In this document: positions 2,690 to 23,311 of the stretch, one piece after another
How the letters are laid out: every line of letters begins with the position of its first letter
How positions within the stretch are numbered: the stretch's first letter is position 1
Source: a virus
Strand: one strand, 5' to 3'
Length of the DNA stretch: 64,000 nucleotides
Virus record (IMG/VR): IMGVR_UViG_3300045988_171858
The notes under the pieces: model-generated
What the model saw: the letters and a program-made list of their open reading frames with translations, nothing else
Told to the model about the DNA's origin: nothing
Databases searched by the model: none
Made by a program: the position numbers and the translations under genes

Positions 2690-3196
2690 ATGGCAAATTT
2701 GCGACAATCAATCTATGGCGGCATGTCTGAGTTTCTGCTTCGTTCGGAGAAACAGGCACAGTTCACCGCTGCTGCGGCTGTTGGCGCTGCCGCCTTCGGC
2801 GGATATGGTGTTGCTAAGGGTGCCGTCTCTGATAACACCACCATGTTTGGTGGTGGTGTTGGTGGTGCAACCTTTGGTGCCGCTGCCGGGGCCGGATTGG
2901 CTTATGCAGCTTCAGGTGCTCATGGGAAGGGTCTCAGGAATGTTCTGAGGAACCTGAACAACAAATTTTCGGGAGCAGATCTTGCTGCCGAAGACATGAT
3001 CCGCCGGACAAAAGAAATCGGCATGTCTCCCCAACAATGGGAGAGTGCTGCATTGGCGAGAAAACAATACCAGTTCGGCGATATGAACTATAACACAAAC
3101 GACCTTGTCCATTCTGTTAAAAAGAACCGTGGTTTCCAAGATGTTTCAACCACAGGAAAGAAAGAATGGGAAGCCTGGTTTGACGGAGGGAAATGA
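2690..3196 (+). CDS. hypothetical protein with Gly/Ala-rich (glycine-zipper-like) segment
   Basis: 168-aa ORF and the first gene of the + strand block. It contains AAAAVGAAAFGGYGVAKG...GGGVGGATFGAAAGAGLAYAASGA. Its stop overlaps the next start (ATGATG). Confidence 0.75.
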   Translation: MANLRQSIYGGMSEFLLRSEKQAQFTAAAAVGAAAFGGYGVAKGAVSDNTTMFGGGVGGATFGAAAGAGLAYAASGAHGKGLRNVLRNLNNKFSGADLAAEDMIRRTKEIGMSPQQWESAALARKQYQFGDMNYNTNDLVHSVKKNRGFQDVSTTGKKEWEAWFDGGK

Positions 3197-3795
3197 TGGG
3201 ACTGTTTAACACATTCAATCGTGAGAGGGCTGCTTATCGTTCTGCTGCCCGTGCAGCTGACAATTCCCTTCGTAACAAAAGGGCTGTTTCAAGTGCCGGT
3301 TTCACTCTTGCTTCTGATGTTAGGGGCAAGTTTGGTTCTGCTGCTTTGGCAACTGGTGCTACATTTGGTACCGTCGGGTATGCATATAACACGGCTACCG
3401 GCGGTGATGATTTTAGTGGGGCTACAAACGGCATGATGGCCGGTGCCCTTATCGGTGGTGCCCGTGCTGCCGCTTCACTCACTAAAGCCGGTAGAGACGG
3501 ACGTATCATCAAATCAATCAGTCAGTTTAACAATCGGGCTAGAAATCCTAGTGCCCCATTGGACACATCGACATTCACTGAAGCCCTCTTCGGGGGGATG
3601 GGATCTTCTCTTGGCAAATTTAACAATGCCAGCAGAAGTCCTGTGAATCGGACTGCGGCGGCAGCTAAAGCTGCTAATGCATCCGGAGCCGGAAGTCGTA
3701 ACACATATGCCGGCTACAACGCCAGGGTTGTTGGAGACAATTTGACTAACAACTATGGCAAGAATCCTGGTGCAGATGGATTCTTTAAACTTTAA
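3193..3795 (+). CDS. hypothetical protein, Gly/Ala-rich
   Basis: 200-aa ORF with a start coupled to the previous stop. It has similar small-residue-rich segments (GATFGTVGYAYNTATGG..., GMMAGALIGGARAAAS). Confidence 0.75.
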   Translation: MMGLFNTFNRERAAYRSAARAADNSLRNKRAVSSAGFTLASDVRGKFGSAALATGATFGTVGYAYNTATGGDDFSGATNGMMAGALIGGARAAASLTKAGRDGRIIKSISQFNNRARNPSAPLDTSTFTEALFGGMGSSLGKFNNASRSPVNRTAAAAKAANASGAGSRNTYAGYNARVVGDNLTNNYGKNPGADGFFKL

Positions 3796-3812
3796 ACTAG
3801 GGGAAAATAAAG

Positions 3813-4127
3813 ATGTCTGAACAAGACGAAAGTGCCGTTCTTGGTATTAAAATCCCGAAAAGCTTTAGCATCATCGGGTTGTTCTCTGCTCTTTGCTCTA
3901 TTGTATGGGGTTCATGGATTGGAGCGACTACAATGGCAAGAATGGAGTCTCAACAGGCAGCTATGGCAACTACCCTTGAACAGATTAAGTCCGATTTGGT
4001 CACTAAGAATGAGCTAGAATCTCGCGTTCAACTTATTAATGGCATGATTGACCGGAACAAGGAAGATCTTCGTCGTCACGAAGATAGAATTTCCAATCTG
4101 GAGGGCGAGCGCCGTAGAGGCCAATAA
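3813..4127 (+). CDS. single-pass membrane protein with coiled-coil tail, a lysis-cassette candidate (holin/antiholin or i-spanin-like)
   Basis: 104 aa with a TM-like segment (SFSIIGLFSALCSIVWGSWIGA) followed by a charged helical region. It lies two genes upstream of the lysozyme. Confidence 0.4.
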   Translation: MSEQDESAVLGIKIPKSFSIIGLFSALCSIVWGSWIGATTMARMESQQAAMATTLEQIKSDLVTKNELESRVQLINGMIDRNKEDLRRHEDRISNLEGERRRGQ

Positions 4128-4145
4128 GATATAAAAGGAAGCTAT

Positions 4146-4451
4146 ATGGGAACTGTAAAAGGAAACCTGATTGCTTTCATATCTAGAAAACTGTTCTTCT
4201 CACTGTTAATCTTTGGTGTCTGTGCCTGGCTTCTCTCTATTGGGAAGCTGGAATCAGGCTCCTTCGAGACTATCACTATTTCTATCATAGCCGTCTATCT
4301 AACTTCGAACATTGCAACCAGATATACGGTATCGAAAGGTAAGCTTATTGCAGAGGCTGGGCAGGGTCAGCTTGCCCCGCCGCCTTCTCATGCCGAACCG
4401 GCAGAGTATGAGGAATATGTAGAAGACATAGAAAATGAGCCAAAAGGTTGA
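4146..4451 (+). CDS. two-TM small membrane protein, holin candidate
   Basis: 101 aa with two hydrophobic helices (LFFSLLIFGVCAWLLSI and ITISIIAVYLTSNIA) and an acidic C-terminus. The call rests on topology and position only. Confidence 0.4.
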   Translation: MGTVKGNLIAFISRKLFFSLLIFGVCAWLLSIGKLESGSFETITISIIAVYLTSNIATRYTVSKGKLIAEAGQGQLAPPPSHAEPAEYEEYVEDIENEPKG

Positions 4452-4492
4452 TTTATAACACTTTTCTTTGAAACAGAGGAAACCAGATTAAA

Positions 4493-4981
4493 ATGTTGTT
4501 AGAACGATTGAAACAAAACTCAGCGATTCGCAGGCAATTTGGCGTCCATGGTCGAATCAGACTTCGATTTAAGGATGGGAAAGAGGCCTTTATCTACACG
4601 CTGGAGTCCCCGTGGGACTATAATCATGACGAGCCTAACGGCATTGTTGGTCTTAGCTGTATTAAAGATGGTGTTTATCAACTTTCTATTGAAGAATCTC
4701 CCGTTCATAAGATAAAATTACCGTTTCTCGTCAATCCTCAAAATGGGGTCCAGTTGCATCAGAAGAATGCGGCAACAGACCGGTGTGGGCATGCCTTTTG
4801 CCATATTGTCGACAGGGATATTTATAGTATTTACGGGAGATATATTCTAATTGGGGCTGATACTAGATATAATAGCCAGGGTTTCTATGAGCCAATAGAA
4901 GGGTATAAGGCGTATACCCTATTGATGAAATATTTAGAAGAAACCGGCGATAAGGAGGTAAAGATTACATGGGTGAATTGA
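4493..4981 (+). CDS. hypothetical protein
   Basis: 162-aa ORF with AGAGGAAACC upstream, overlapping the endolysin start by 13 nt. I could not verify any motif. Confidence 0.7.
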   Translation: MLLERLKQNSAIRRQFGVHGRIRLRFKDGKEAFIYTLESPWDYNHDEPNGIVGLSCIKDGVYQLSIEESPVHKIKLPFLVNPQNGVQLHQKNAATDRCGHAFCHIVDRDIYSIYGRYILIGADTRYNSQGFYEPIEGYKAYTLLMKYLEETGDKEVKITWVN

Positions 4982-5466
4982 TTAAGGATTTTAGCCCTAA
5001 CTGCGTCAAACTTACGGAACACTTCGAGGGTGTCGTTTTGCACAAGTATGATGACGGCGTTGGTAAAATCACCATTGGGATTGGGCACGCCATTAAACCT
5101 GGCGAAACCTTTCCTGAGAAGATTACCCCTGAGTTTGCAAGGGAATTGCTGATGAGGGATTTGCAGATTGCTAAAAATGCAATCCTGAAGAATGTGAAAG
5201 TTCCTCTGAACCAGTGTCAATTTGACGCTCTCGGTGTCTTCATTTTTAATGTTGGAGCATCTGCTTTTGCTAGCTCCACTCTATTGAAGAAACTCAATGC
5301 GGGCGACTATGATGGCGCCTCTAAAGAGTTTATTCGCTGGAACAAAGGGAGAGTTAAAGGTGTGCTTGTTGAAATGCCGGGTCTTACTAGACGTCGGTTT
5401 GCCGAGCAGAAGCTGTTTAACTCGAATCCAGCGTTTGGTAACCCTCTAAAATTCATTATCCAATAA
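4969..5466 (+). CDS. endolysin, GH24 (T4/lambda-type) lysozyme
   Basis: It has E-x8-D-x5-T catalytic spacing (LTEHFEGVVLHKYDDGVGKITIGIGH). It also carries the family motifs QCQFDALGVFIFNVG and GLTRRRFAEQKLF. Confidence 0.9.
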   Translation: MGELIKDFSPNCVKLTEHFEGVVLHKYDDGVGKITIGIGHAIKPGETFPEKITPEFARELLMRDLQIAKNAILKNVKVPLNQCQFDALGVFIFNVGASAFASSTLLKKLNAGDYDGASKEFIRWNKGRVKGVLVEMPGLTRRRFAEQKLFNSNPAFGNPLKFIIQ

Positions 5467-5470
5467 AATA

Positions 5471-5505
5471 AGCTCCAGGGTGTTTGCCCCGGAGCTTTTC
5501 TTTTT
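5471..5505. terminator. bidirectional intrinsic terminator between convergent genes
   Basis: AGCTCC(A)GGG (5471-5480) pairs with CCCCGGAGCT (5487-5496), followed by TTTCTTTTT on + and by TATTTTATT on the minus strand. Confidence 0.7.
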
Positions 5506-6370
5506 AGCTGATTGGATTAGAACGGAAGGAAGTTGAGAATGAGTACATCACCTCTCTGTAAACCAGAGGTAGATTTTTAACCATTCTTGCGTCGGTTGAA
5601 TCATCTACTTCTTTGATTCTCAGATTTGAGACGGAGAATTTATTTTCTAAGTCTCGGATAGAATCCTCGCCGTATTCCAATGCAAGGAAATCCATCAGTC
5701 CTGTTACTGTTTTGAATGGATTGTCTTCGCCGTCTTTTAGGCCGTCTTCAATTTCGGCGATTAGCGATTTTGGCATACAGAGATTGATTTTCATCTCTTT
5801 GTGTGGAACCCATTTCATCGCTCTATTGTAGTTGATTGCTGTATTGACCAGCATTGCAACCAATTCTTTCGGAGGAACCACATAGCCATCTAGGCTTTGT
5901 TCTACTACTGCTGTGTAGTTGGTTCTATATTCGCCTACTGCCAGTTTACGAAGCTCTGGGATCGGTTTATCTTTTAGAACTTCGTATGGCTGCTTGTATG
6001 TGTAACGGTAAACTGGATATTCAATAATTGCGGCGCTCAAGAAGTATTTATTTTTCAGCTCTTCAATTCCGCGCATTGAAGTTCGTTCTTCTCGGTTTAC
6101 CATATAGATCAATGGGTAAATATTAACTTCATCGCAGGCAAACAGAGGGTTGCGCATTTTTCTTTCGTAGAAGATTTTTCCGACCTCATTGTTTACAGTT
6201 TCATTTGAAGCCCATACATCACGAACACCAGTATTGTCATTATAAGCCACACGAGGAGTGAGACACATGGCACAGGTAGAGCCAAGGTTATAATAAGTAA
6301 TACGTTCTGGTTGTGATTGGAAAAATTGATCTTGCAGAAATTCGCTTTTGCTCATTTTGTATTCTTTCAT
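5504..6370 (-). CDS. hypothetical protein (lone reverse-oriented gene)
   Basis: The ORF track gives 5504..6415 from a GTG start. I prefer the in-frame ATG at 6370 (MKEYKMSKSEF...), and the ATG at 6355 is also possible. I recognised no motifs. Confidence 0.7.
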   Translation of the reverse strand: MKEYKMSKSEFLQDQFFQSQPERITYYNLGSTCAMCLTPRVAYNDNTGVRDVWASNETVNNEVGKIFYERKMRNPLFACDEVNIYPLIYMVNREERTSMRGIEELKNKYFLSAAIIEYPVYRYTYKQPYEVLKDKPIPELRKLAVGEYRTNYTAVVEQSLDGYVVPPKELVAMLVNTAINYNRAMKWVPHKEMKINLCMPKSLIAEIEDGLKDGEDNPFKTVTGLMDFLALEYGEDSIRDLENKFSVSNLRIKEVDDSTDARMVKNLPLVYREVMYSFSTSFRSNPIS

Positions 6371-6516
6371 TGTTGTTATTATTCTTGTTATAAGGTTGCT
6401 TCCGACATCCCTCACTACAGATATGTATTATACGGAAAATGAACATAAAAGTCAAGTTTTTTATGATTTTTCTTCTCTTTAAAATCAATGGCTTATAAAA
6501 TAGTCTAAAAATCTTC

Positions 6517-6546
6517 TTGACTTCAACCATATTTTTAGTGTACAAT
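6517..6546 (+). promoter_or_regulatory. sigma70-like promoter candidate (upstream of the consensus promoter)
   Basis: TTGACT (6517-6522), an 18-nt spacer, then TACAAT (6541-6546). Confidence 0.4.
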
Positions 6547-6589
6547 TGATCATTTTGTTGATAAGAAATGTAAAGATTACAAATAGTGC

Positions 6590-6618
6590 TTGACAAGCGG
6601 GTTAAAAATCCGTATAAT
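6590..6618 (+). promoter_or_regulatory. perfect-consensus sigma70 promoter
   Basis: TTGACA (6590-6595), exactly 17 nt of spacer, then TATAAT (6613-6618). No ORF follows with a plausible RBS. Confidence 0.75.
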
Positions 6619-6826
6619 AGCACCTATGATGTTGATGACGGAAGAACACCGTGTCGGGATAATCTACGGCGTCCGGTCTTCAAGAGACATCATCTTACTG
6701 TGAATTAGTCCTAGAGAAATCTAAATAACCTCGAGAGGCGAGGTCGGATGAGACAGTAATGAAACTCCTAGACGTGGGCGAGCCTAACCAAAGGAGTCAG
6801 TCGAAAACTCGTTGTTGAAGTAGCGT

Positions 6827-6880
6827 AAACTCCCTGATACAAACTCCCTGATTCAAAGTAATGTATCAAAGTAATACGAG
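6827..6880 (+). repeat. four consecutive 13-14 nt tandem units
   Basis: The units are AAACTCCCTGATAC (6827-6840), AAACTCCCTGATTC (6841-6854), AAAGTAATGTATC (6855-6867) and AAAGTAATACGAG (6868-6880). Confidence 0.8.
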
Positions 6881-7253
6881 AGGTGGCGAGTATAAATAAA
6901 TTTCCTGTTATGCAGTGGATTGTAACCGAAAATGATACAAGTAGGCCACATGGGAAGATGAAACATCTCTGGTCTTGTAGAGATAGCATATTGAGCTACA
7001 AGATGATACCGAAAGGTATGACTATAAATGGAAGTATAAACGGTCCATGGATTGAGTTCCTTGGAGGGTCAAGATGGGTGAAGAAAAAGCCTAGGGCATA
7101 GTTCTCTTACAATTAGGATTATGTCAGTAAGACATCTACGTTGTACAACAAGGTTAGACTGGGTTTAGTTAGATTAGATTCTAACTAGAAGACTGTATCA
7201 ATTTTTGTCTTCTAACCGTGCTTGGTTAGGCCTAACTGTATCTACAGAAAACG

Positions 7254-7622
7254 TAAACTTCCATAAGAAACGTATAATAGAGGCAAGTTTACTAAGATAA
7301 CTTCCGATTATAATAATAGATCGGCCGCGCAGGAGCGGCCCGGATAAAAGAAAAGAAACTTCCCAAAGCAAAAAGAAACTTACTGCAGATAGATAATATA
7401 ATCTATCGATACAAAGAATACTTATTACCCTATTGATGTAGATAATACATAGGCTGCTACCGCAGCCCTAAGTTACCAATAGGAAAATAAACATAGGCTT
7501 AGGATACTTACTTAAGCTTGTTGTAGTCTACAATTATATTTGATAATATTTGGAGGTAGCTTGATGCTACCTCCTATTTTATTTTGCAAGAGAAACTTAC
7601 TTAAGCAAATAATACTTACTGC
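7254..7622 (+). repeat. dispersed array of (A/T)ACTT(A/C)C motifs
   Basis: Copies on + are AAACTTCC at 7255, TAACTTCC at 7298, AAAAGAAACTTCCC at 7351, AAAAGAAACTTACT at 7371, ATACTTAT at 7418, GGATACTTACTTAAGC at 7502, AGAAACTTACTTAAGC at 7591 and AATACTTACTGC at 7611. One inverted copy (AAGTTTAC, 7285) forms an 8-bp inverted repeat with 7254-7261 around CGTATAATAG. Confidence 0.75.
7552..7585 (+). terminator. rho-independent terminator
   Basis: A 9-bp stem, GGAGGTAGC (7552-7560) with GCTACCTCC (7566-7574), has loop TTGAT and is followed by TATTTTATTTT. Confidence 0.8.
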
Positions 7623-7656
7623 TTCCTGTATTGGATGTATCCTATGGAAGCTTTTT
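7621..7656 (+). terminator. second rho-independent terminator candidate
   Basis: GCTTCC (7621-7626) pairs with GGAAGC (7646-7651), with an inner GGAT/ATCC pairing, followed by TTTTT (7652-7656). Confidence 0.55.
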
Positions 7657-7894
7657 AGAGATGTTCTGCTAAATCGTGGTTACACTGTCAGATTTAGTTC
7701 CTAGGTCATATATCCGGTTATTGCCTATGACCATGATTTAGCCTATACTAAATTATTCGATAGTAAAATAAGAATTCAGATTCTATTGCAAATTATACGG
7801 ATCTACTGTCTGCATCTATTTCCGTTTCCCTTGTTTTTAGTATTATGATGTAGTAAGAATAAGAATAATAATTTAACTCAGGATAATTAGTTCA

Positions 7895-9220
7895 ATGGCT
7901 ATTCCAAATAAAGAAATCCAAGAAATGTTCGACTTATCTGCAGGTATTATCTCTGCTCATGAAATGAGGGAAAAAGAGAAAACTAAGACCAAAACAGAAG
8001 TTGAAAAAACAGTATCTATGATACAAGAAAAAGAATCCAAATCTATTCCGATTCTATTTTCAGCTAGAGGCATCAAAGTTGCTGACAATAAGATTACAAG
8101 AGCTAGATACCTAGATGCTCTATCTCTAGATAACAAATTATACGAAAGTATTGTTCTTACTGAATCTGAAGCATTGGCATTCAGTACAAGTCTACGCCGT
8201 TCTACAGATGGTGGTATTTCCACTTACTCACCTATGATTTGCAGAGGTTCAAACTGCAAAGTAAAAGAGACATGCTTAACTGGTGATGCAATGGTCTCTA
8301 TGCACGACGGTAAACAAGTAAGAATCGACCGTATTAAAAGCGGCGATAAAATCATTTCATTCAATACGAGAACAAAACGTATTGAGCAAGACACTGTATA
8401 TGCAACGGCATATGTTGGCGAAGAGTTGGTGTATGAAATTACCACTACCGCCGGCCATTGCATTAAGGCAACATCAAACCATCCGTTCTTTGCAATAAAA
8501 GGACGAGGTTCAAAATTCAAGTTCTTATCAATCGATGATGGACTTACAGTAGGCAGCAAGCTAGTGTATGAAGACCTATTCAGCGAAGAAGAGAATTCAT
8601 ATGGAGACTGCCTAATTACCAAGATCGAATCCATAGAGACTGTTGGTGTTCTTCCAGTCTATGATATTCAGGTCTTTAAAAACTCTAATTTCTTTGCAGA
8701 AGGGCTACTTGTCCATAACTGCCAGTTGCATAAGATGAACAAGGCCCCGGTGGGAGCTCCGTGTATTTATGAACAGGATTACTTGCGCAGCCAGACGGAA
8801 AGGTACTTCGAAGAGTTTAATGTTCAACCAGACAGCCCGACGGAAATGCAGATGGTTGCAGAACTCGCAGAAATCGACCTCTATGAAAGGAGAGTTACCC
8901 AAATCCTCTCATTGACCCACCAAGACTTTAGCCAAGAAGACCTGATGGGTTTTGATGCCGGCGGTAATATGATTGCCCGTGATGATATTTCAAGGTATCT
9001 AAACATCAAAGAGAAACTGAAGAACAGAAGAAGCAAACTTCTAGAATCACTAATGGCGACGAGGAAAGAACGTGCTAAGATTGCTGTTCAGGCATCTGGC
9101 GCAGGTGTCGGAAACGGAAGTCAGTCACTCAAAGATAAACTTGATATGCTTACTGCTGCAACACGAGGACAGTATAGAGACCCATCAGTGATAAATGGTT
9201 CGAAAAATGACACAAACTAA
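7895..9220 (+). CDS. Cys-rich hypothetical protein interrupted by a mini-intein (small-terminase or DNA-binding role is only a positional guess)
   Basis: 441-aa ORF. The exteins (126 + 166 aa) join as ...ICRGSNCKVKET|CQLHKMNKAPVGAPCIYE..., a 4-Cys cluster. The C-terminal part is charged and helical. It is the first gene of the block that leads to terL. Confidence 0.85.
   Translation: MAIPNKEIQEMFDLSAGIISAHEMREKEKTKTKTEVEKTVSMIQEKESKSIPILFSARGIKVADNKITRARYLDALSLDNKLYESIVLTESEALAFSTSLRRSTDGGISTYSPMICRGSNCKVKETCLTGDAMVSMHDGKQVRIDRIKSGDKIISFNTRTKRIEQDTVYATAYVGEELVYEITTTAGHCIKATSNHPFFAIKGRGSKFKFLSIDDGLTVGSKLVYEDLFSEEENSYGDCLITKIESIETVGVLPVYDIQVFKNSNFFAEGLLVHNCQLHKMNKAPVGAPCIYEQDYLRSQTERYFEEFNVQPDSPTEMQMVAELAEIDLYERRVTQILSLTHQDFSQEDLMGFDAGGNMIARDDISRYLNIKEKLKNRRSKLLESLMATRKERAKIAVQASGAGVGNGSQSLKDKLDMLTAATRGQYRDPSVINGSKNDTN
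8273..8719 (+). mobile_element. class-1 mini-intein (149 aa, no homing-endonuclease domain)
   Basis: Block A is CLTGDAMV with Cys1 at 8273-8275. Block B is ATSNHPFF (TxxH). Block F is VYDIQVFKNSNFFAEG. Block G is LLVHN followed by the +1 Cys (8720-8722). The element is in frame with the host ORF. Confidence 0.9.
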
Positions 9221-9722
9221 AAAGGTCACCAATAAGGTCAAGCGTAGTAAAAAGAGAAGCTTGCCAAAGCCTAAGAATACAAAAGAAGAGCATATTAAAA
9301 AGAACGGCGCCTATTTTAATAAGGGCAAGAAGTACCGCTCTGGGAAATACTTCTCCATAAAGGCCGGTAGAGAGATTGAGTACCGCAGCCTATACGAATA
9401 CGCGTTCTATAAAGGCATGGATTCTGACAATAGTGTTATCAAATATATTGTAGAGCCAATGAAGATTCCATATACAGACAGCTCTGGACTAAGAAGAAAC
9501 TACATCCCCGACGTATTGGTCCTATATACAACAGGCGAAGTAGAGCTGTGTGAAATCAAACCATCATCGGCAAAGAAAGCAATAAACGTACAGCTAAAAG
9601 CAAGGGCGGCAGTTGCATTCTTGAAAGACAACAGAATCAATGCCAAATATAGATTCATTACAGAAAAAGAAATCTTCGAGAAAGATGGCGACTACCGTAA
9701 ACTGCTCAAGGAAGTAAAATGA
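9195..9722 (+). CDS. TnsA-N-like PD-(D/E)XK nuclease
   Basis: 175 aa with a basic N-terminus. The motifs SLYEYAF ... YIPDVLVLYTTGEVELCEIKP fit the E...PD...(E/Q)xK pattern of TnsA/restriction-fold nucleases. It overlaps the end of the intein host gene by 26 nt. Confidence 0.6.
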   Translation: MVRKMTQTKKVTNKVKRSKKRSLPKPKNTKEEHIKKNGAYFNKGKKYRSGKYFSIKAGREIEYRSLYEYAFYKGMDSDNSVIKYIVEPMKIPYTDSSGLRRNYIPDVLVLYTTGEVELCEIKPSSAKKAINVQLKARAAVAFLKDNRINAKYRFITEKEIFEKDGDYRKLLKEVK

Positions 9723-11407
9723 AACCATTTAGCAACGTTGTCTCACTTGACTTTGAAACAACCTCTACAAATCCGGAGGAAAGGATTAAAGACGTCAGAG
9801 ACGGCGTTGTTAAGTCCAGGCATAAAGCCAGGATATGGTCAGTAGGTTTAGCAACAAGAAGTGACGGCTCTGAGGCTATATTTAACCCATCACAAGAACA
9901 ACTGCAATCCGAGAAGATTGCATTGAATAGGAGAGGGTTCTACGCCCAAAACCAGGAGTGGCAAACATATGTATCAGGGCAAAAGAAACCTTCATCAGCA
10001 GAACTCCTGTTTGAAGCATCCGATAGGGCTATTTTAAAGCACCTGGATGACAGCTTGACGTTTGGCAACTCAGGAATGATCCTTGTACAAAACCTTGGAT
10101 TTGAACGTTCATTCTATGCAAGCCTTGAAGGCTCTTCATCGTCAAGATTGATGAATCAGATGTATGAGCGTTCTCCGGATGGCCAAACAAAACTGTATTC
10201 GCCGTCGGAGGTAGTAAAAGCAAGGGCCGCCGCCAAGGACGCTAAAACGCTCTCAGATTTAGATGCGGCTATGGACAAGGTAATGGCTGCCTACGAGAAA
10301 GTAGACGCATCTGTGATGAAATATGACGCAGAGAGAGCTACTAAGGGCGGACTGCCAATATTCTATGCGGCTGACCTTATGGATTTCACTAAAGCAACAT
10401 TCGTTAAGGCTGCTGCACAAGGCCATATTCCGGAAATGTACAAGGAAATGGGTCATAATGTAGATTTCCTTGCAAGCATGTTCTTGGGCGAAAAAGAGAC
10501 ACACGGCGCCTTATCAGATGCGAACCAACAGATTAGACTCTTTGATAAAATAATCGGCATAAGGCAAGAGCTAATTGCTGGCAATATTTCAGATGAAACA
10601 ACCGGTATCTTCAATAAGATGAAGACGGCATCTGGCATTGTTCGGGAAATACAGGCTGCAAAATCAATCATATCAAATATAGAAAAGTTCAAAGAGTCGG
10701 GCACTTGGGATTCTAAACAAAGAATAGATACAGTACAGGTTCCATTTGTAAACTCTTTAACAGGGAAAACCGGACACATAGAGACTCCAAGATTCTCCAG
10801 GGATGTTTCCAATGAGAGAGGATTGGCCAACTTCCTAACGATGTCAAAAGAGAGATATGGTAACACCCAGGCATATGCAGACCTGGAAAATATAATCAAG
10901 TCGGCACAAGGCAATCATGAAGTTGCACAGGAACTGTTGCGTAATCCCGACTCAACCGCAAAAATAGGTGCAGCCAATATTGATAACGGCGAGCTCCTTA
11001 GAAAGATTATTAGCGGCGAGGAATTATCAAACGAAGAGTTGCTAAAAATACGCAACACTAATATCTCTCACGGTTCAGAGCTTTCACTGTCTCAATTTAC
11101 AAAAGATTCATACAATAAAATACGTAATAGCCATGAAGCACTTAAATCAATCCTCCCTGAAAGTCACAGGGTTGGGATACCGGCAGTCGGGTTAGCAGCG
11201 GCGGGCAGCCTACTATACATGATGGCCGACTCTTTTGATGATGACATGAGAGTTAGGAAACTAAAAGACAGACAGGAAAGATTAGACTTCAACCAATATA
11301 ATGACCCTACTTTCAACAAATTCTCCGCATTGGATTATTCAATGGTAGCACCAGCAGGGTACATGGAAGCACAATATAGAGATTCAAGGAGGGCACATGA
11401 GTATTGA
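9719..11407 (+). CDS. DEDDh (DnaQ-like) 3'-5' exonuclease domain protein with long C-terminal extension and TM-like segment
   Basis: Exo I is VVSLDFETT, an Exo II-like motif is ILVQNLGFERSF, and Exo III is HGALSDANQQIRLFD (H-x4-D). The C-terminal hydrophobic segment is IPAVGLAAAGSLLYMM. Confidence 0.65.
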   Translation: MKPFSNVVSLDFETTSTNPEERIKDVRDGVVKSRHKARIWSVGLATRSDGSEAIFNPSQEQLQSEKIALNRRGFYAQNQEWQTYVSGQKKPSSAELLFEASDRAILKHLDDSLTFGNSGMILVQNLGFERSFYASLEGSSSSRLMNQMYERSPDGQTKLYSPSEVVKARAAAKDAKTLSDLDAAMDKVMAAYEKVDASVMKYDAERATKGGLPIFYAADLMDFTKATFVKAAAQGHIPEMYKEMGHNVDFLASMFLGEKETHGALSDANQQIRLFDKIIGIRQELIAGNISDETTGIFNKMKTASGIVREIQAAKSIISNIEKFKESGTWDSKQRIDTVQVPFVNSLTGKTGHIETPRFSRDVSNERGLANFLTMSKERYGNTQAYADLENIIKSAQGNHEVAQELLRNPDSTAKIGAANIDNGELLRKIISGEELSNEELLKIRNTNISHGSELSLSQFTKDSYNKIRNSHEALKSILPESHRVGIPAVGLAAAGSLLYMMADSFDDDMRVRKLKDRQERLDFNQYNDPTFNKFSALDYSMVAPAGYMEAQYRDSRRAHEY

Positions 11408-12521
11408 TAGAAGTCAACTTTGGGGTCAGGTAGCCCTAGAGTCAAAAGACGGCTTGCTGACAGGTGATAAGTCAAGATCAAAGCACGCCTCAAGGACGTC
11501 TAAACGCCTATTCGAAAACGGCCTGGGTAACGAGGACCATCCAGTAAAATGGGCATCAACCCTTTACGCTAAGAATGCAATCGAAGACTATACAGACGTT
11601 AGAAAGATGCTGGATAGTACAGATCCATTCTCAAAAGGCTCAATTGGTACAGCATTAAAAGCAGAGGCCATTACAAACTCTAGAAATAGGACGGCCGCAG
11701 AGCGAATATTTGGTGCGGCTCCAGGTTCAAGCAAATACAATTCGACACAGCCAATCAGGGGCGGCGGCATAAATAATATGTATGCCTTCAATAGCTACGA
11801 GTCATTTGTAACAGCAGGCGCAATGGACCATCTTGGTAGAGCCAGTAAATTCTTTAGAGGCTATGGCCTTCGAGATGACCTTATGAACTCTGTCGGGTTA
11901 ATGACTAAACACCAAAAGGCAATTATTTCCTCGTCTGCAACAAAAGCGACAGACAAACTGTTTACGGGTATGGCCCCAATACTTGGCGGTGTATTTGCAT
12001 TAACAGAGTCCGCAGATTATATTCTAGGGAATAAGGAATCGACGATTACAGACAACGCCGCAACTTCAGTGGCAGGCATGGCAATATCAGCTGCGGCCGG
12101 CACATACGGTTTTCGCGTTGGCAAAGAACTGACTCATGCCGGAACATCATTACTTAAGGGTGCACCGATAGTTGGTAAAATTGGCCGCGGAACAGCAGGA
12201 GAGGCCCTCGGTATGGCAGGAAGGGTTAGGGGTGCAGCCAAGCTTGCAACAGGTGCCGTAGGTGGTCTTGTGGTCGGCGGAGGGCTAATGATGGCTGCAG
12301 ACGCAGCAATAGGCCTGGCCAAAAGCATGGCAGATAGAGACAACAGGATTCTGCAACTGAGAAACTCACTATTCTCATCTACATCCGGTAATACCTCAGT
12401 TAATACATCCCAACTTGCCACAAGTAGACAAAGAGCATTCTCAAAATTGTCCAAATCCTCACTGAATGATAAGGGTTACATTCTTGGTAATGAGGCAGCT
12501 ATACTGAAAGGTATATACTAA
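11397..12521 (+). CDS. hypothetical protein with Gly/Ala-rich hydrophobic C-terminal half
   Basis: 374-aa ORF containing GAVGGLVVGGGLMMAADAAIGLA and SVAGMAISAAAGTYG. Its stop overlaps the terL start (TAATG). Confidence 0.75.
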   Translation: MSIDRSQLWGQVALESKDGLLTGDKSRSKHASRTSKRLFENGLGNEDHPVKWASTLYAKNAIEDYTDVRKMLDSTDPFSKGSIGTALKAEAITNSRNRTAAERIFGAAPGSSKYNSTQPIRGGGINNMYAFNSYESFVTAGAMDHLGRASKFFRGYGLRDDLMNSVGLMTKHQKAIISSSATKATDKLFTGMAPILGGVFALTESADYILGNKESTITDNAATSVAGMAISAAAGTYGFRVGKELTHAGTSLLKGAPIVGKIGRGTAGEALGMAGRVRGAAKLATGAVGGLVVGGGLMMAADAAIGLAKSMADRDNRILQLRNSLFSSTSGNTSVNTSQLATSRQRAFSKLSKSSLNDKGYILGNEAAILKGIY

Positions 12522-14482
12522 TGTCAGAAGAATTAGAACAAAACACTGACCATATCCGTAAGGATATAGAAGAGGACGACGATAGGAAGCCGACGTCGTC
12601 CCTTATTCAACTTTATGAAATGCCCTGGCGGGACTATCTAAAGCACAAAAATTATGATACAGATATCAATAATATGTGCAGGAACTGCCAAAGGGAACAA
12701 ATCAGAAAGTACGGAGAAATTACAATTAAATGCTCTGGGCCTAAAGATATCAGTGTCCTGGATCAAAATATTGTAGCCGATTTAAACAAAGAAGAGCTTG
12801 ACGAAATTAAGCAAGCGATGGATCCCGTATACTGGGCAGAGAAGAACATCGATGTAAACCAGCCGGACCCGACGAAACGTTTATATGTTAATAGATGGTA
12901 CCAATCTATGCAAATTAAATGTTCTGCGTCTAAAAAAGCTATCCGGTGCGGGCGGCGTTCAGGTAAATCTTACGGCCTTGGTATTGATATTTCCAACAGA
13001 CTTGTTCAAAACAGTAACTATCAGATCCTTGTAGTAACACCGTTCCTATCTCAAGCAAAAGAGCTTACAAACGTAGTCAAAAAGATTCTCCGCTCTCTTG
13101 GCGATACAATAGGTACATGGGATGACCTTGTTGAACGCTCAGTTACATCTCCGTACCAAGAGATCCAGATGAAGAATGGCTCAACATTCAAAGCGTTTAC
13201 AGCCGGTAATGACAATGCAAACGCCGTCCGCGGTCAAGGTGCACACCTTATCATCATCGACGAGGCGGACTTCCTAACCCAAGAGGCATTTGACTCCATT
13301 ACTGCCATCTTGATGGATAAACCAAATACCGAAATTATTTGTACATCCACACCGATGGGCGAGGGCCTATTGTACAAGTTCGCAAACTCAAAAGACTACA
13401 AAGAGTTCCACTTCCCATCCTTCTGTATCCCCCACTACAATGATGACATGGACAGAGAGTTCCGCAACTCATTGTCCATGATGGCATACATCCAAGAGAT
13501 CATGGCAGAATTCGGCCTTTCAGATAACTCCGTATTTGATACAGACCTCGTGAATAGAAGTACGACAATTGGAACCTCAGAATCTCTACATGATGTAATC
13601 GTCAATAGAGATAGGTATATAGTGTCTCTTGGTTGTGACTGGAACGCCGATAAGGTTGGTACACGTATTTGTGTTATTGCATACGACAAAATTGAGCGCA
13701 AGGTTATCATTGCAAATCTTTCAAATGTAAGACGAGAAGGATGGACACAGGTTGCAGCAGTAGATAAGATTGTCGAACTTAATAGACTCTATGTCCCCGA
13801 TTATATTTATGTCGACGAAGGGTTTGGTGAGGCAAACGTTCAGCAATTAAAACTTATTGCCGTAAATCTATTTGGTAAAGTACCGACGAATCATCCGGAT
13901 TTGAGATTGCGCAATGTAACGCCGGTTAACTTCTCATCGACACTTGAGCTTCGAGATGTAATGACCGGAGAAATCCGTAAAAAATACTTCAAAAACTTCA
14001 TCGTAGAAACCACCAAGCGTGCATTGGAAACTGATTTACTGGCCTTCAAGGATCCAATCTCAGCACCAATTGTAGAGCAGATGAAAAACTATATTGTTAA
14101 ATCTCGCGCTGCAAACGGAAGAGAAGTATACGAAGCTAAGAACCACGAGATTGGCGACCATGATTTAGATGCATTTATGATTGCATTGGCTGGATTGCAA
14201 TTAAATGAGGATTCAATCCTAGACACACGGCGCTATTCTAATGTTACAATATTGCCACTTGAAAAACGCGGCTCTGAAGCGTATAATAACTCGAATAAAA
14301 TAGAAAAACGCTCGTATGCAAACGAGGAAAAGTACCATCGAACAGTTCGTGTTGCCCCTGGCATTAGTCGACGTTCGTCCATAACAGGTGGACCGATGGG
14401 TGGCAGAGGTTCTTTGTCTAGAGAGACAGCCTCTACGTTTATGAATAGGTACAGAGCTACAATGAGGTCAAAACCTAGATAA
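12521..14482 (+). CDS. terL: terminase large subunit
   Basis: Walker A-like CGRRSGKSYG and Walker B-like HLIIIDEADF are present. The nuclease-domain acidic motifs are LGCDWNAD, IYVDEGFGE and HDLDAFMIAL. Length is 653 aa. Confidence 0.9.
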   Translation: MSEELEQNTDHIRKDIEEDDDRKPTSSLIQLYEMPWRDYLKHKNYDTDINNMCRNCQREQIRKYGEITIKCSGPKDISVLDQNIVADLNKEELDEIKQAMDPVYWAEKNIDVNQPDPTKRLYVNRWYQSMQIKCSASKKAIRCGRRSGKSYGLGIDISNRLVQNSNYQILVVTPFLSQAKELTNVVKKILRSLGDTIGTWDDLVERSVTSPYQEIQMKNGSTFKAFTAGNDNANAVRGQGAHLIIIDEADFLTQEAFDSITAILMDKPNTEIICTSTPMGEGLLYKFANSKDYKEFHFPSFCIPHYNDDMDREFRNSLSMMAYIQEIMAEFGLSDNSVFDTDLVNRSTTIGTSESLHDVIVNRDRYIVSLGCDWNADKVGTRICVIAYDKIERKVIIANLSNVRREGWTQVAAVDKIVELNRLYVPDYIYVDEGFGEANVQQLKLIAVNLFGKVPTNHPDLRLRNVTPVNFSSTLELRDVMTGEIRKKYFKNFIVETTKRALETDLLAFKDPISAPIVEQMKNYIVKSRAANGREVYEAKNHEIGDHDLDAFMIALAGLQLNEDSILDTRRYSNVTILPLEKRGSEAYNNSNKIEKRSYANEEKYHRTVRVAPGISRRSSITGGPMGGRGSLSRETASTFMNRYRATMRSKPR

Positions 14483-14498
14483 GAGGAATCTTCTAAAT

Positions 14499-14918
14499 AT
14501 GGATTACAATCTAATCAGGATTACTGATAGCACCGTTTTGTCGGATGCCGGTATTTGCTACTATGACCCGATAGAAGAGGTTATCAAAGAAATTGGTTCT
14601 GGATATATGATGGGGACAAATCCAACGTCCCCTGTAATCCATAAGCTGATGCTAGTAATTAAGAACGGTTCTATCAAAAAGGTCAACGTCAAAGTAGTTA
14701 AGAATAAAGAGCTAGAGGCTCTATTCGATATCAAAATTTTACCTGGGGTTTCCGCCCCAGGGCTTTCTTCCTTCGCAGAAGTCGACGCTTTTAATAGTCT
14801 TGAGATAACAGACGGGTTGCAGCCATATTCGCTAATCCCGTTTCATGTTTATATCAAAACAAAAGGTCCTATTAATGCTTTACTAAATGCACCATTGGAG
14901 CTTACCTATGAGTTCTAG
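14499..14918 (+). CDS. hypothetical protein
   Basis: 139-aa ORF with GAGGAA upstream. Confidence 0.7.
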   Translation: MDYNLIRITDSTVLSDAGICYYDPIEEVIKEIGSGYMMGTNPTSPVIHKLMLVIKNGSIKKVNVKVVKNKELEALFDIKILPGVSAPGLSSFAEVDAFNSLEITDGLQPYSLIPFHVYIKTKGPINALLNAPLELTYEF

Positions 14919-15174
14919 TTTTACGGTAAAAGAAGTAAGCTCAATCCTAGAGGAGCTGGTTGTAGCTAAATCAGAAATCCTCGGGAAGCTAAAGGACCTA
15001 AAGGTTACGGCAACGGACGATAGGGATCCTGACGTTATGACGGCAGTACGAAACCTTTATGGGGAAGATGCCATAAAAGACGGCAAGGCCTCTATTTCAT
15101 TTGAAATGGTTGCACAGTGTATTGATATCGTAAGACGTGCAGGCAAGGCAAAGGCTGCGGAGTTAATTAAATGA
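14908..15174 (+). CDS. hypothetical protein
   Basis: The ORF track starts it at 14887. I prefer the in-frame ATG at 14908 (MSSSFTVKEV...), which has GGAG 8 nt upstream. Confidence 0.65.
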   Translation: MSSSFTVKEVSSILEELVVAKSEILGKLKDLKVTATDDRDPDVMTAVRNLYGEDAIKDGKASISFEMVAQCIDIVRRAGKAKAAELIK

Positions 15175-15743
15175 TTGAGTTATGGGGCTCACAGAGTCAA
15201 AATACAATTGTTGACCAACAAAGGGCAGAGTTGTATATGAGGCTTTTCCAGTATGCCTCATCTGATTTCACAAACAATCAGGATATCAAAGTATTTGTAG
15301 AAGATGTTATAAGGTGGGCAAAATCTGTTGAAGACAGAATGAAGAAGCTTGAGCAAGACCTAAATGCTCATACTCATCAGATACCGGCACATACACATCA
15401 GGTTCCTCCTCATACTCATCAGATATTGCCTCATACTCATCCGACGGCTTGGGGTCCAAGTGGCCCTAATGTCCCCACCTCAACAGATACGGGAACATTA
15501 AAGACTACAGGTGTTAATGAGGTTTTTGATTCCATTAAGCCAACGCAAGAACTTAAATGGACCGAGGGGGAAATCCCAAAGATGTATCAAAATACGTCTG
15601 GCGCTACCACTAATCTTAACAATAAAGTAACAGCAGGCGCCGGGGTTATAGGTGATGTAGCCGTTCATCAGAGACGTTCTACGCCTCTTGCAAAAGCAGC
15701 GGCGCCGAATATCCCCCCGTATTTACTACCAACACCGCTATAG
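15171..15743 (+). CDS. fibre-like protein with four HTHQ (HxH) heptad repeats
   Basis: A coiled-coil-like segment (VEDRMKKLEQDLN) is followed by AHTHQIP AHTHQVP PHTHQIL PHTHPTA, four 21-nt units at 15366-15449. HxH repeats are known metal-binding motifs in trimeric phage fibres. Confidence 0.45.
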   Translation: MIELWGSQSQNTIVDQQRAELYMRLFQYASSDFTNNQDIKVFVEDVIRWAKSVEDRMKKLEQDLNAHTHQIPAHTHQVPPHTHQILPHTHPTAWGPSGPNVPTSTDTGTLKTTGVNEVFDSIKPTQELKWTEGEIPKMYQNTSGATTNLNNKVTAGAGVIGDVAVHQRRSTPLAKAAAPNIPPYLLPTPL

Positions 15744-15750
15744 GACACAG

Positions 15751-17661
15751 ATGGAATTAAGCAGAAAAGTTAGCCCAACGGCAAGTACAACATATGCAGT
15801 CGCCTATGCACAGCTTATTGTTGACCATTTCTCAAAAGCACTACAGGAAAACGGCTGCTTAATCCAAGTTCCTGTTGGGTTATATGTACAATTTGACGAC
15901 CAATATAACAGATTAGTAGATTATATAGAAAGCGCATTAAATGCTGGGAATATTGATAATGACCACAATGGGGATAAACTTGACTCTGTCGTTCATCCTA
16001 ACGGGGCTATTAACCCTAAGCACTTAGCTGCAATAAAGAGTGCAATCAGAAAGGCCAGTAACGACTGTTTTGCCTGTAATATTGAGAAGCCTAAGTTTGA
16101 TTTCAGTGGTATCTTCGGAAATCTGCTAAAAGATATTACGACATCGCTAGATCAATTCAGGAATATAGGTAAGTTCAATAAGGCATCGGTCTGCCAATAC
16201 GCATTCTTCCTATCGTATTTGTGCCTCCCTGATTTGCTTAAGTTGATAGCATTAATCCTGGCTGCAATCGTAAAGACGACGCAGAACATCCAATTACCAA
16301 GGCTAACGGTTGCAGTATTCATCAACGCTATTCTAGGCGCAATTATCGAGGCGCTAGTTAAAAATATTTCTGTATTGGCCAGATTTGCACTTACACCCGT
16401 GCTATGTATTCTGGATTCAATTGATTCTATTATTGACCAATTGCCAACTCCAGAGAATATCCGCAATACAAGTGCAGAGGAATTAAAGCAATTAGGCGTT
16501 AATAAGAAATTCCTTGATGGCGAATACGATACTAATCTCAAAAAGAAAACACAAGAGATTAGAAAACAATACACATCACGCGTAAACAAATATGCGGAAA
16601 CTGCCGAGCTGAATACAAGAAAACATGTAGAAGAGATTATGGGCCCTCTTCAAGAGACCATTAATCGCAGCGTTGAATCACTGAACAATTCAATTGCAGA
16701 GCTTACGGGCCTACTAAATCATTTTAGTTGTGAACCTGCTCGTTCAGGCTTGACTATTTCGCAATATCTGAGTAACCTATCAGAACTGATGGCAATGGCA
16801 AATCTTTTAAGGTACATTGTCAGAATGAAGTCTGGTAAAGCCGCAATTGAAAAAATTTGTAATGCTCCTGCCGGACAGCAAAACTTTGGCCAGGATAACG
16901 ACACAACCAATATAGACGGAAATTTATCAATCGGTAATATCGGCTCTGTAATAGCAGATACAATCGGTGCGGATATCGATCTAATTACAGATGAGAATGG
17001 AAACGCAATTGCTGTTGCAATCAAAGATAATGACGAGGGCAATAAAGACAACCTCTCATTCTATTCTTGTAATCTTGACGATTTTGCGAGGTCTGTGACT
17101 GTTCCAGGCCTAATTGAGGAGATCTCAAAGTACGATTTCCCAAGTATTAAAGTTGACGAATGGAATCCTTCTCCATGGAAGGTTACGGTTATTCCTGATT
17201 CTAAATACGACTACGGCCGCCCCAATACCTCTATTGTTCCATTGGTTATTAATACAGACGACCCAAATTGGAGTATTCCAAAACACATTCAAAATGTAAT
17301 AGGGTTTATAGATAAGTATAACGGAGCAACAGACCCTGCCAGAACATCTAATGATATTACATTCATTGATGAAGATCTAAATAGAATCATCAAAGACAGA
17401 CAAATCAAAACCGAAGACGACAACATCGTCGACGGTCTAACAGATTCCTCTGTAAGAATTGTTAATGAAGATGGCAGCGTTAAGATTATCGACTCTACTG
17501 GGCGTATACAGACAAACAACAGTGCACCAACACCGACTGCAGTCGAAAGCGTGGAAAGACTAATTGCAAACTTTAGCAATTCAAAAGCAAAAAATTCACC
17601 ACTTGGACAGCTAGACTGTATTACAGATATAGAAAACGTCCTTAATAAGCTCGGAGACTAA
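15751..17661 (+). CDS. hypothetical protein with central hydrophobic region
   Basis: The ORF track starts it at 15688, overlapping the previous gene by 56 nt. The in-frame ATG at 15751 (MELSRKV...) follows AGGA and avoids the overlap. Confidence 0.75.
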   Translation: MELSRKVSPTASTTYAVAYAQLIVDHFSKALQENGCLIQVPVGLYVQFDDQYNRLVDYIESALNAGNIDNDHNGDKLDSVVHPNGAINPKHLAAIKSAIRKASNDCFACNIEKPKFDFSGIFGNLLKDITTSLDQFRNIGKFNKASVCQYAFFLSYLCLPDLLKLIALILAAIVKTTQNIQLPRLTVAVFINAILGAIIEALVKNISVLARFALTPVLCILDSIDSIIDQLPTPENIRNTSAEELKQLGVNKKFLDGEYDTNLKKKTQEIRKQYTSRVNKYAETAELNTRKHVEEIMGPLQETINRSVESLNNSIAELTGLLNHFSCEPARSGLTISQYLSNLSELMAMANLLRYIVRMKSGKAAIEKICNAPAGQQNFGQDNDTTNIDGNLSIGNIGSVIADTIGADIDLITDENGNAIAVAIKDNDEGNKDNLSFYSCNLDDFARSVTVPGLIEEISKYDFPSIKVDEWNPSPWKVTVIPDSKYDYGRPNTSIVPLVINTDDPNWSIPKHIQNVIGFIDKYNGATDPARTSNDITFIDEDLNRIIKDRQIKTEDDNIVDGLTDSSVRIVNEDGSVKIIDSTGRIQTNNSAPTPTAVESVERLIANFSNSKAKNSPLGQLDCITDIENVLNKLGD

Positions 17662-17663
17662 CA

Positions 17664-19412
17664 ATGAAAAATGAAGATATGGGAATTCTTCTGAATACCA
17701 ATTATTCTTCAAATCCAAAGGTAATTAAGGATGCTCTAAGCAGTAAAGCTCTAGGTATCAGAAGACAGTCCCTATCAAATCCGGGGCTGTCTTATTTTGG
17801 CAAAAGAACCGGCGGATTTAATGATGTAATCTACAGTGGCTTCAAAAATCATGAGTATGATCTTTTTGAATACTCAAGAATTATTGATACAGAAGCTATT
17901 GTAGCCAAAGCATTCGAACGCCAGCGGGCCTTAATTTTTAAAAACGGCTTCTACTTCGAATCCAATAACCCGAAAAACGTTGAATATATCAAATCTCGAA
18001 TTAGAGAGATTGAGTATGTTACAGGCCTAACATTCCGTAACTTTATCGAAGAAATGGCATATAACCTTGTGATGTTTCACAACGCCTATATCCTTATGGT
18101 TAGAAATGAGGATAAGTCTACCGGAGAAACGGTAAATGTAGGCAATAAAGAGTTGCAGCCAATAGCAGGATGGTTTAATCTTCCAACTGAAACGATTCAA
18201 CGTAAACTGAAAGAAAACGGCGATGTCGAGATGTATAAGCAATATCTTGACCCGGCCACATTTAGATTATTTTCCCCAGAGAAAGTAAGGCATCTAAAAT
18301 ACAATGCCCGTTCAGGCTTCACTATGGGTACACCTCCATTAGAAGCAGTAAAAGACGACATCCTTGCATTGAGACGAATCGAAGAGTCAGTAGAGACATT
18401 GATCTACAAGGGTATCTTCCCTATGATTCATGTCAAGGTCGGTACAGAATCAAATCCGGCCAAAATCCTTATTGACGGAAGGGACGAAGTCGAAACGATG
18501 GGCTATGTAATGCAAGAGCTGGATGAGTACGGCGGCATTACTACAAGTGAGCGCGTAGAAGTAAAAGCAATCGGCTCAGAGTCACTAGCACTACGGGTAG
18601 AAAGCTATTTAGAATACTTCAAAGACCGCGTAATGTTAGGCCTTGGTGTTTCAGACATCGACATGGGTATCGGTGATTCCTCTGGTAAGGCTACCGGCCA
18701 AATCATCTCCCAAACTCTGAAAGAAGCAGTAATCAATAAACAAGATGCAATATCAGAGTTTATTACTCATGTTTTGTTTAAACCGCTTCTAGTGGAATCC
18801 GGAATGTATGAAGCAGAATACATGATCCCGGAAGAGGACCTGGTTAAGTTTAAATTTAATCATGTTGACCAGGACGCCCGTATTAAGATAGAATCACATA
18901 TCCTTAATATGTTCAACAGCGGCCTATTGTCCATCAATGAAGCCAGACTCGAAATTGGCTACAAAGAAATCGGCGATAAGGAAATTTCCAGAATCGGTAA
19001 AGACAAGGAAATGATCCTTCCGACATACCAGGTAGAAACAGCCAAGGTAGCAGCGGCAGCTGCTGCACAATCCAAAAAAGAGAATAGTTCTGGCAATAAG
19101 ACAAAAGCCGACGGCGCGAAGAAAGCTTCCGCATCTAAGACGAATCCAAAGAATCAGTTCAGTGATTCGCTATTTCCAATAGAAGAAATTAAGGCTGCAC
19201 TACCGAACAAAACGTTACTATCTGAATACATTGAGAATCATATAAAATCAGTAGTTGACATATCTGATTCACAAATGGATAATAACGTAAAAGATATTGT
19301 TTCTGTCTTCTCTGACGCTCTATATTTAGCTGGTCAGTCCGAAGATATCTCAGATTCAGATATCGAAGATTCACTTATTGAAATGTATGAGTTAGTTGGA
19401 GGAGAGTCATGA
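17664..19412 (+). CDS. portal protein candidate
   Basis: 582 aa, lying between terL and the prohead protease, with its stop overlapping the protease start. The call rests on size and synteny only. Confidence 0.55.
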   Translation: MKNEDMGILLNTNYSSNPKVIKDALSSKALGIRRQSLSNPGLSYFGKRTGGFNDVIYSGFKNHEYDLFEYSRIIDTEAIVAKAFERQRALIFKNGFYFESNNPKNVEYIKSRIREIEYVTGLTFRNFIEEMAYNLVMFHNAYILMVRNEDKSTGETVNVGNKELQPIAGWFNLPTETIQRKLKENGDVEMYKQYLDPATFRLFSPEKVRHLKYNARSGFTMGTPPLEAVKDDILALRRIEESVETLIYKGIFPMIHVKVGTESNPAKILIDGRDEVETMGYVMQELDEYGGITTSERVEVKAIGSESLALRVESYLEYFKDRVMLGLGVSDIDMGIGDSSGKATGQIISQTLKEAVINKQDAISEFITHVLFKPLLVESGMYEAEYMIPEEDLVKFKFNHVDQDARIKIESHILNMFNSGLLSINEARLEIGYKEIGDKEISRIGKDKEMILPTYQVETAKVAAAAAAQSKKENSSGNKTKADGAKKASASKTNPKNQFSDSLFPIEEIKAALPNKTLLSEYIENHIKSVVDISDSQMDNNVKDIVSVFSDALYLAGQSEDISDSDIEDSLIEMYELVGGES

Positions 19413-21076: not shown

Positions 21077-21098
21077 AATCTCCGGAGAATAATCCACA

Positions 21099-21977: not shown

Positions 21978-22006
21978 TCCAACAATCATAGGAATAAATA
22001 AATAAT

Positions 22007-23263: not shown

Positions 23264-23311
23264 TTTTTCAAAACTAGGTATATAATATACTCATAGTTGA
23301 TTAAACAACAT

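Follow-up and report, generated by a model that had tools for sequence, protein, structure and literature searches.

A mini-intein in an invariant four-cysteine site of a previously undescribed, terL-linked phage protein family

The IMG/VR virus record IMGVR_UViG_3300045988_171858, a stretch of 64,000 nucleotides (nt) referred to here in its whole length as the window, carries a gene whose protein product is predicted to mature by splicing. The feature at nt 8273..8719 is a mini-intein in a previously undescribed family of host proteins (exteins); the kind of intein is itself already known. We hold with good confidence a reading in three parts: that the mini-intein is vertically inherited, that its host belongs to the packaging module of the phage, and that the nuclease gene immediately downstream is an independent gene of the T4 gp4 type. 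A sequence-only reading of the same DNA had recognized the intein and had also raised the idea that the neighboring nuclease mobilizes it in trans. The first of these claims is confirmed by the analysis, and the second is not supported.

The precursor gene encodes 441 amino acids (aa), which by splice arithmetic yield a spliced product of 292 aa; coordinates of the gene, its parts and its neighbors are collected in Table 1. All of the splicing blocks claimed for a canonical 149-aa mini-intein can be read. Block A is CLTGDAMV, starting with Cys1 at 8273-8275 (aa 127); block B contributes its TxxH motif as T193-S-N-H196, with Thr193 and His196 at 8471-8482; and blocks F and G extend from VYDIQV (containing Asp257) to LLVHN, in which His274-Asn275 occupies 8714-8719 and is followed by Cys+1. 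Intein profiles match the open reading frame (ORF) at 7895..9220 well above their cut-offs: Pfam Intein_splicing scores 63.7 bits (cut-off 35.8), NCBIfam intein_Nterm (TIGR01445) 35.1 bits (cut-off 24.5), and NCBIfam intein_Cterm (TIGR01443) 30.4 bits (cut-off 15.6). The 149-aa segment also aligns over its full length with the 154-aa Ssp DnaB mini-intein 1mi8, an intein of solved structure that is competent for splicing (E = 4.6e-12). Because this alignment runs end to end, there is no room in the intein for an endonuclease domain, as had been claimed, and a Pfam scan finds no LAGLIDADG or HNH match within it. These results confirm nt 8273..8719 as a class-1, cis-splicing mini-intein lacking an endonuclease domain, for which splicing is predicted; after splicing, the junction would read ICRGSNCKVKET joined directly to CQLHKMNKAPVGAPC.

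Homologs that have no intein show where the host protein ends and the intein begins. When 1.84 billion representatives are scanned exhaustively with HMMER at a family threshold of E<=1e-3, the extein family comes to 642 members, counted as clusters at 50% identity. Among 148 newly listed members, 104 are intein-less proteins of 230-310 aa that match in one continuous run through the splice junction. A set of 87 aligned intein-less homologs is likewise contiguous there, with an uninterrupted span of 26 residues from first to last cysteine. Because the intein-less homologs are continuous at the junction, the 149-aa segment is, on the evidence of the alignment, a true insertion rather than an integral domain of the protein.

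The insertion falls in the most constrained part of the family. The intein-less consensus for this region reads C-x-G-x2-C-P-F-x3-C-P-[YFL]-x5-K-A-P-x-G-x2-C-x2-E, the family spacing being C-x4-C-x5-C-x13-C-x2-E, and the sole invariant columns of the 87-sequence alignment are C116, C121, C127 (the residue at position +1 of the intein), C141 and E144, in intein-less numbering. The four-cysteine cluster that the sequence-only reading had seen split in a single protein is thus invariant in all 87. Since the intein splits four cysteines that do not vary across the family, its placement in a functionally critical site is supported. The further suggestion that the rejoined cysteines bind zinc stands in part: their invariance supports a predicted Cys4 metal site, for which zinc is a plausible ligand and an iron-sulfur (Fe-S) cluster is also possible. 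CP motifs, which many family members share, are compatible with an Fe-S cluster as well, and in profile searches with the extein and ten intein-less members no curated zinc-finger family matches.

The intein appears to have been in place for a long time. Querying a word index with the spliced extein brings up 19 close relatives, on contigs of up to 188 kb, one source being a human oral metagenome. Every full-length relative (440-461 aa) carries an intein at the identical site, and nothing in the four fragmentary sequences of this set contradicts the pattern. Cys1, Thr193, His196, Asp257, His274, Asn275 and Cys+1 are unchanged wherever they are covered (15-17 of 18 rows), down to 38% identity. 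Intein identity parallels extein identity, both among the closer homologs (intein identities of 97, 95, 89, 83, 71 and 41-52%) and in distant hosts with an intein at the same site, where the inteins share 29-48% and the C-exteins 29-49% of their residues with those of the window. Ratios of nonsynonymous to synonymous substitution (dN/dS), taken only where synonymous sites are unsaturated, are 0.05-0.06 for the intein and 0.02-0.06 for the exteins. There is no compositional sign of recent acquisition in the intein, whose GC content and third-position GC (GC3) both lie between the values of the two exteins. The simplest reading of these comparisons is that the intein is old, fixed in the clade to which the window belongs, vertically inherited, and under purifying selection equal to that on the exteins.

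Synonymous divergence (dS) is uneven in comparisons with single relatives. Between the window and locus L006, dS is 0.45 in the intein, lower than the 1.3-1.5 of the flanking exteins, and in comparison with locus L017 the pattern is reversed. This contrast looks like the local recombination mosaicism that is typical among phages, not like evidence of homing.

From established intein chemistry, the sequence of events would be as follows. The 441-aa precursor would be translated, Cys1 would form a thioester, Cys+1 would attack that thioester, and Asn275 would cyclize with the aid of His274, giving the 292-aa spliced protein and a free intein of 17 kDa. Because Cys+1 doubles as invariant cysteine 3 of the four, the metal site, whether for Zn or for Fe-S, would form properly only after splicing. 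The endonuclease of the intein would have been either lost or never present, and the intein would persist because the host gene requires that splicing be precise.

The host protein, which had been called uncharacterized, remains without a match to any described family. Searches with the spliced extein and ten intein-less members give nothing significant in Pfam, PHROGs, NCBIfam or the sequences of the PDB, a look-up of source names for the extein family gives none, and blastn of window positions 7000-13000 against a phage collection gives no DNA match. Two cultured phages contribute members. In Bacillus phage 0305phi8-36 the member is gp112, an intein-less protein of 242 aa. In Acinetobacter phage vB_AbaM_ME3 it is gp009 (YP_009595841.1; locus L008, 4078..5373), a protein of 431 aa with a homologous intein before the same cysteine (...CAFKQT/CLTGD...IVHN/CPYW..., slashes marking the splice points) that is missing from the annotation of the record. 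The record labels gp009 "RNA (guanine-N1-)-methyltransferase," a misannotation that probably stems from a spurious weak match. An AlphaFold2 model of the spliced protein, built with an alignment of intact intein-less homologs, has a mean predicted local distance difference test score (pLDDT) of 80, with residues 80-250 above 84. In it a compact Cys loop precedes a helix hairpin, after which come a beta hairpin and a long helix. A trimmed model of the C-extein reaches a pLDDT of 93.

Synteny is the strongest clue to what this protein does. Related loci were gathered with a nine-sequence alignment, and linkage to terL, the gene for the terminase large subunit, was scored on loci with at least 6 kb of flanking sequence; one scan left out locus L003, whose gene coordinates do not give clean translations. 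In 25 of these 29 loci a TerL homolog is encoded 1.2-5.7 kb downstream on the same strand, and the same arrangement is found in ME3 and 0305phi8-36. The intein host gene of the window does stand at the head of a terL gene block, as the sequence-only reading had it. In 0305phi8-36, gp112 has no virion annotation, and mass spectrometry of the virion detected gp113, gp114 and gp116. The host protein would thus be a non-virion packaging component of large phages resembling 0305phi8-36 and ME3. In a fold search against BFVD the top four matches are members of the family itself, and below them the annotated matches are mostly small terminase subunits (TerS), at E-values of 2e-3 to 0.1; the best-superposed TerS models fit at about 3.0-3.8 Å across about 95 aa. 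On the synteny and these weak fold matches we class the extein as a protein of the packaging module and as a candidate for the small terminase, an assignment to which we would give roughly even odds. Within the module, its most likely role would be that of a small terminase-like DNA-recognition partner of TerL.

Several results weigh against a small terminase. A Foldseek search of the PDB returns nothing below E = 0.05, whether the query is the full model or the trimmed one (pLDDT 93), and in the PDB fold search the TerS of phage HK97 scores just E = 1.0-1.6. Comparison by hhalign of the family with an HK97 TerS alignment gives a probability of 0.3%. Searches of Pfam, PHROG and NCBIfam reveal no sequence or profile match to a TerS; one of 87 members reaches Terminase_4 at E = 0.023. 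Three to five genes separate the family gene from terL, which is unusual for a TerS gene.

These objections leave some room for an extein that is no terminase subunit and instead has a different late function from its place at the operon's head, such as that of a metal-dependent late transcription factor or of a DNA-end processing factor that partners the two downstream nucleases. We regard such a role as possible, if rather doubtful. It would explain the missing sequence and solved-structure links to any TerS, it suits a gene that is the first after a 1.5-kb regulatory gap, and in one subclade a gp4-like nuclease gene and the gene for a DEDDh exonuclease-like protein always come after the extein gene. 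However, the linkage to terL persists where the nuclease genes are missing, small terminases make up most of the annotated viral fold matches outside the family, and the ORFs scanned in window positions 2690..26519 include no other candidate for the TerS.

The site occupied in the window is one of several in the family. A hidden Markov model (HMM) built from the intein-less family has the cysteines at positions 81, 86, 92 and 106, and when long homologs are mapped on it, inteins are found to precede each of the four. The intein lies before the first cysteine (C1) in representative P0155, where it is of LAGLIDADG type, and before the second (C2) in P0120. It lies before the third (C3) in the window and some 20 other representatives, and before the fourth (C4) in P0030, P0051, P0081 and P0141, the last again of LAGLIDADG type. 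Inteins stand before both C3 and C4 in P0074, P0109 and P0144, and P0109 (1037 aa) has three inteins within a stretch of 26 residues. In P0024 (aa 133-590) and P0044 two inteins adjoin at C3 with zero extein residues between them (...VHN/CQP...N/CPYY), so that the +1 Cys of the first, a mini-intein, doubles as Cys1 of the second; P0077 is probably also a tandem at C3. About 1 in 5 of the best 150 representatives has at least one intein. In the literature searched, inteins are described neither in a small terminase nor in any member of this family, and the multi-site and tandem pattern seen here is not described either.

Some of these inteins have features of their own. Those of P0120, P0092, P0030 and P0081, and the second intein of P0024, P0044 and P0109, are about 290-330 aa long, start with CQPPG(T) or CHPPG, and share a conserved internal domain (VYLMxKxxxFRVGxT ... 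EKAD..WIL) that has no Pfam match. This domain may be an undescribed type of homing endonuclease; its likeness to GIY-YIG is only an impression. In the distant phage locus L013, TerL (11230..13380, PHROG 2) has a LAGLIDADG-type intein of its own, judged from Pfam Intein_splicing and a weak LAGLIDADG_3 match, and the Cys4 protein of that phage is intein-less. The phage contig that encodes P0141 (locus L049) has an IS605 OrfB/TnpB (Cas12f-like) gene at 13347..14477, in its late block.

An intein fixed in this position invites the thought that it has been domesticated as a switch, with zinc, redox state or a partner protein restraining splicing. Six cysteines near the junction would act as the sensor, and assembly of the metal site, hence packaging, would be timed to late infection. 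The intein is fixed over a clade of 38-97% identity and is selected as strongly as the exteins, and Cys-11, Cys-6, Cys1, Cys+1 and Cys+15 lie near each other, as such a switch would have it. The zinc-reversible splicing of a DnaB intein, documented in PMC7360933, also counts in favor of the idea. Purifying selection on splicing residues is, however, equally expected if the intein is purely selfish and its host gene essential, and most members of the family function without any intein at all. We consider the switch unlikely. Improbable, too, is the full combination in which the Cys4 protein is the small terminase-like packaging-initiation factor of large phages resembling 0305phi8-36 and ME3, its metal site forms only after splicing, its four cysteines are an intein hot spot where each acts as a +1 nucleophile, and the fixed mini-intein of the clade of the window serves as a metal- or redox-sensitive timer of packaging. 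The vertically inherited intein, kept by the need of its host gene for splicing, is the reading that we carry forward.

The gene that follows, at 9195..9722, overlaps the host gene by 26 nt and encodes a protein with a Lys-rich N-terminal tail. Its description as a TnsA-like nuclease in the sequence-only reading was accurate: it scores 42 bits (cut-off 26.5) against Pfam Tn7_TnsA-like_N (PF08722), and the E, PD and ExK elements are kept. It also matches PHROG 218 ("head closure") at E = 1.7e-15, and tblastn returns 422 phage records in which, among the matches listed, the gene is mostly annotated as gp4, head completion or head closure. These include gene 4 of phages IME08, 44RR2.8t and S-TIM4, the products of which have the YRSxxE, PD, ExK and ITE motifs in common with the protein of the window. 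For T4 gp4 itself, the published prediction is a PD-(D/E)xK nuclease resembling TnsA or T7 EndoI (PMC1189080). By homology, then, ORF 9195..9722 is an independent morphogenesis gene for a T4 gp4-type nuclease with a predicted DNase role, and it would play no part in the mobility of the intein. A candidate gp4 homolog in 0305phi8-36, gp113, was rejected, with 14% identity and none of the motifs.

This identification bears directly on the proposal of collaborative homing, in which the free-standing nuclease would cut intein-less alleles and so mobilize, in trans, an intein that has no endonuclease of its own. The gene for the nuclease adjoins that of the intein host and overlaps it, and PD-(D/E)xK enzymes are capable of acting as homing endonucleases. 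A further point that weighs for homing, and against an independent nuclease, is that the gene is next door in 7 of 7 intein-bearing loci of the gp4 subclade, an adjacency that arises because the nuclease is a trait of that subclade. The gp4-like nuclease occupies the identical position after 15 intein-less alleles, however, and no such gene is present within 7 kb of P0092 and P0141, which bear inteins and belong to other subclades. Overall, the nuclease accompanies 15 intein-less and 7 intein-bearing loci and is lacking from 15 intein-less and 2 intein-bearing loci, an association that is not significant (Fisher p = 0.25) and is drawn from loci that are not phylogenetically independent. The intein is found in all 19 close relatives, and therefore there is no empty homing site among them. 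The nuclease has its homologs in the gp4 proteins of T4-like phages, where the intein host gene is missing, and for T4 gp4 the later account of Benler 2020 given within PMC7824862 describes a DNase that is non-specific and required for head morphogenesis. Homing in trans is not supported, being largely refuted by synteny, and we think it very improbable indeed.

The independent gp4-type nuclease has a regular companion. Wherever a subclade locus extends far enough downstream, a homolog of the next gene of the window comes after the gp4-like gene, and the packaging module is thus predicted to hold two accessory nucleases, one gp4-like and one DEDDh-like.

Table 1. Location of the intein, its host gene and the genes of the surrounding packaging region in the window
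Feature	Position (nt)	Strand	Basis or remarks
Precursor gene, Cys4 packaging-module protein (predicted) split by mini-intein	7895..9220	+	441 aa; ORF list, splice arithmetic, family search
N-extein, aa 1-126	7895..8272	+	Cys116 (nt 8240-8242) and Cys121 (nt 8255-8257) are invariant cysteines 1 and 2
Class-1 mini-intein, 149 aa, aa 127-275	8273..8719	+	Profile matches, 1mi8 alignment, invariant catalytic residues
C-extein, aa 276-441, and stop codon	8720..9220	+	Invariant columns of 87-sequence alignment; Cys+1 (8720-8722) is invariant cysteine 3, Cys290 (8762-8764) is invariant cysteine 4; Glu293 invariant
T4 gp4-type head-completion nuclease (predicted), 175 aa	9195..9722	+	PF08722, PHROG 218, tblastn, motif alignment
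Module partner, 562 aa	9719..11407	+	DEDDh motifs LDFETT near N-terminus and HGALSD at about aa 262; weak RNase_T match
Conserved module gene, 374 aa, Gly/Ala-rich C-terminal half	11397..12521	+	Position also filled in loci L006, L017 and L018
Terminase large subunit	12521..14482	+	PHROG 2 (E = 2.5e-33); Pfam Terminase_6N; 39% identity to ME3 TerL
Portal	17664..19412		
Major capsid protein	22007..23263		

Just upstream of the packaging operon, the non-coding gap at 6416..7894 contains a full-length HOLDH RNA (Rfam RF02997) at 6626..7019 on the plus strand, scoring 397 bits against a gathering threshold of 319.4 (E = 1e-108). Positions 6590..6618 form a perfect promoter, TTGACA-17-TATAAT, and a hairpin resembling a terminator spans 7552..7574. 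The stretch encoding the RNA is the best-conserved DNA of the region, with 95-99% identity to L017 compared to about 80% in the flanking genes. By this covariance match, a large structured RNA of no known function precedes the packaging operon.

Several consequences follow for the study of these phages. A large unnamed phage family of 642 clusters, tightly linked to terL, gains a name and a role that can be tested, and the GenBank misannotation of ME3 gp009 can be corrected. Placing the nuclease among known gp4-type enzymes removes a mobility story that was tempting but wrong. Here all four ligands of one predicted metal site serve naturally as landing sites for inteins, and the family should be useful for work on how inteins choose their sites, on splicing order, and on splicing that is conditional on metal or redox state. 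Phage ME3 can be cultivated, which opens these ideas to genetic testing.

Among known systems, the closest to the intein of the window is the Ssp DnaB mini-intein (1mi8), which resembles it in a length of about 150 aa, Cys1, the TxxH of block B, an HN end, Cys+1 and the lack of an endonuclease. The Ssp DnaB mini-intein is engineered and has a helicase for its host, whereas the one described here is natural and sits in an uncharacterized phage Cys4 protein, where its +1 nucleophile is also a predicted metal-site ligand, as is not the case in Ssp DnaB. Inteins are known in the TerL proteins of mycobacteriophages and Rak2-like phages (PMC5050341, PMC5259590). These too belong to the packaging module and are inserted at invariant functional residues, but they lie in the ATPase or nuclease of TerL, and not in a separate small protein encoded upstream of it. 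The haloarchaeal MCM helicase is a multi-site intein hot spot (PMC10643990), with several independent sites in one short conserved stretch, as in the Cys4 family; in the latter, the sites are four predicted metal-ligand cysteines within 26 residues, and some alleles are tandem. For the host protein, the small terminases of HK97 and the P27 family offer the nearest comparison, being likewise small, helix-rich, non-virion proteins encoded upstream of terL, although HK97 TerS has no invariant Cys4 site and the gene in the window is not adjacent to terL. The neighboring nuclease has the TnsA-like PD-(D/E)xK fold of T4 gp4, with the catalytic E, D and ExK kept, and differs from it by an extra basic N-terminal tail of about 45 aa. 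In the window its gene is followed by that of the DEDDh exonuclease-like protein, in the place where T4-like phages have gene 2, which encodes the DNA end protector.

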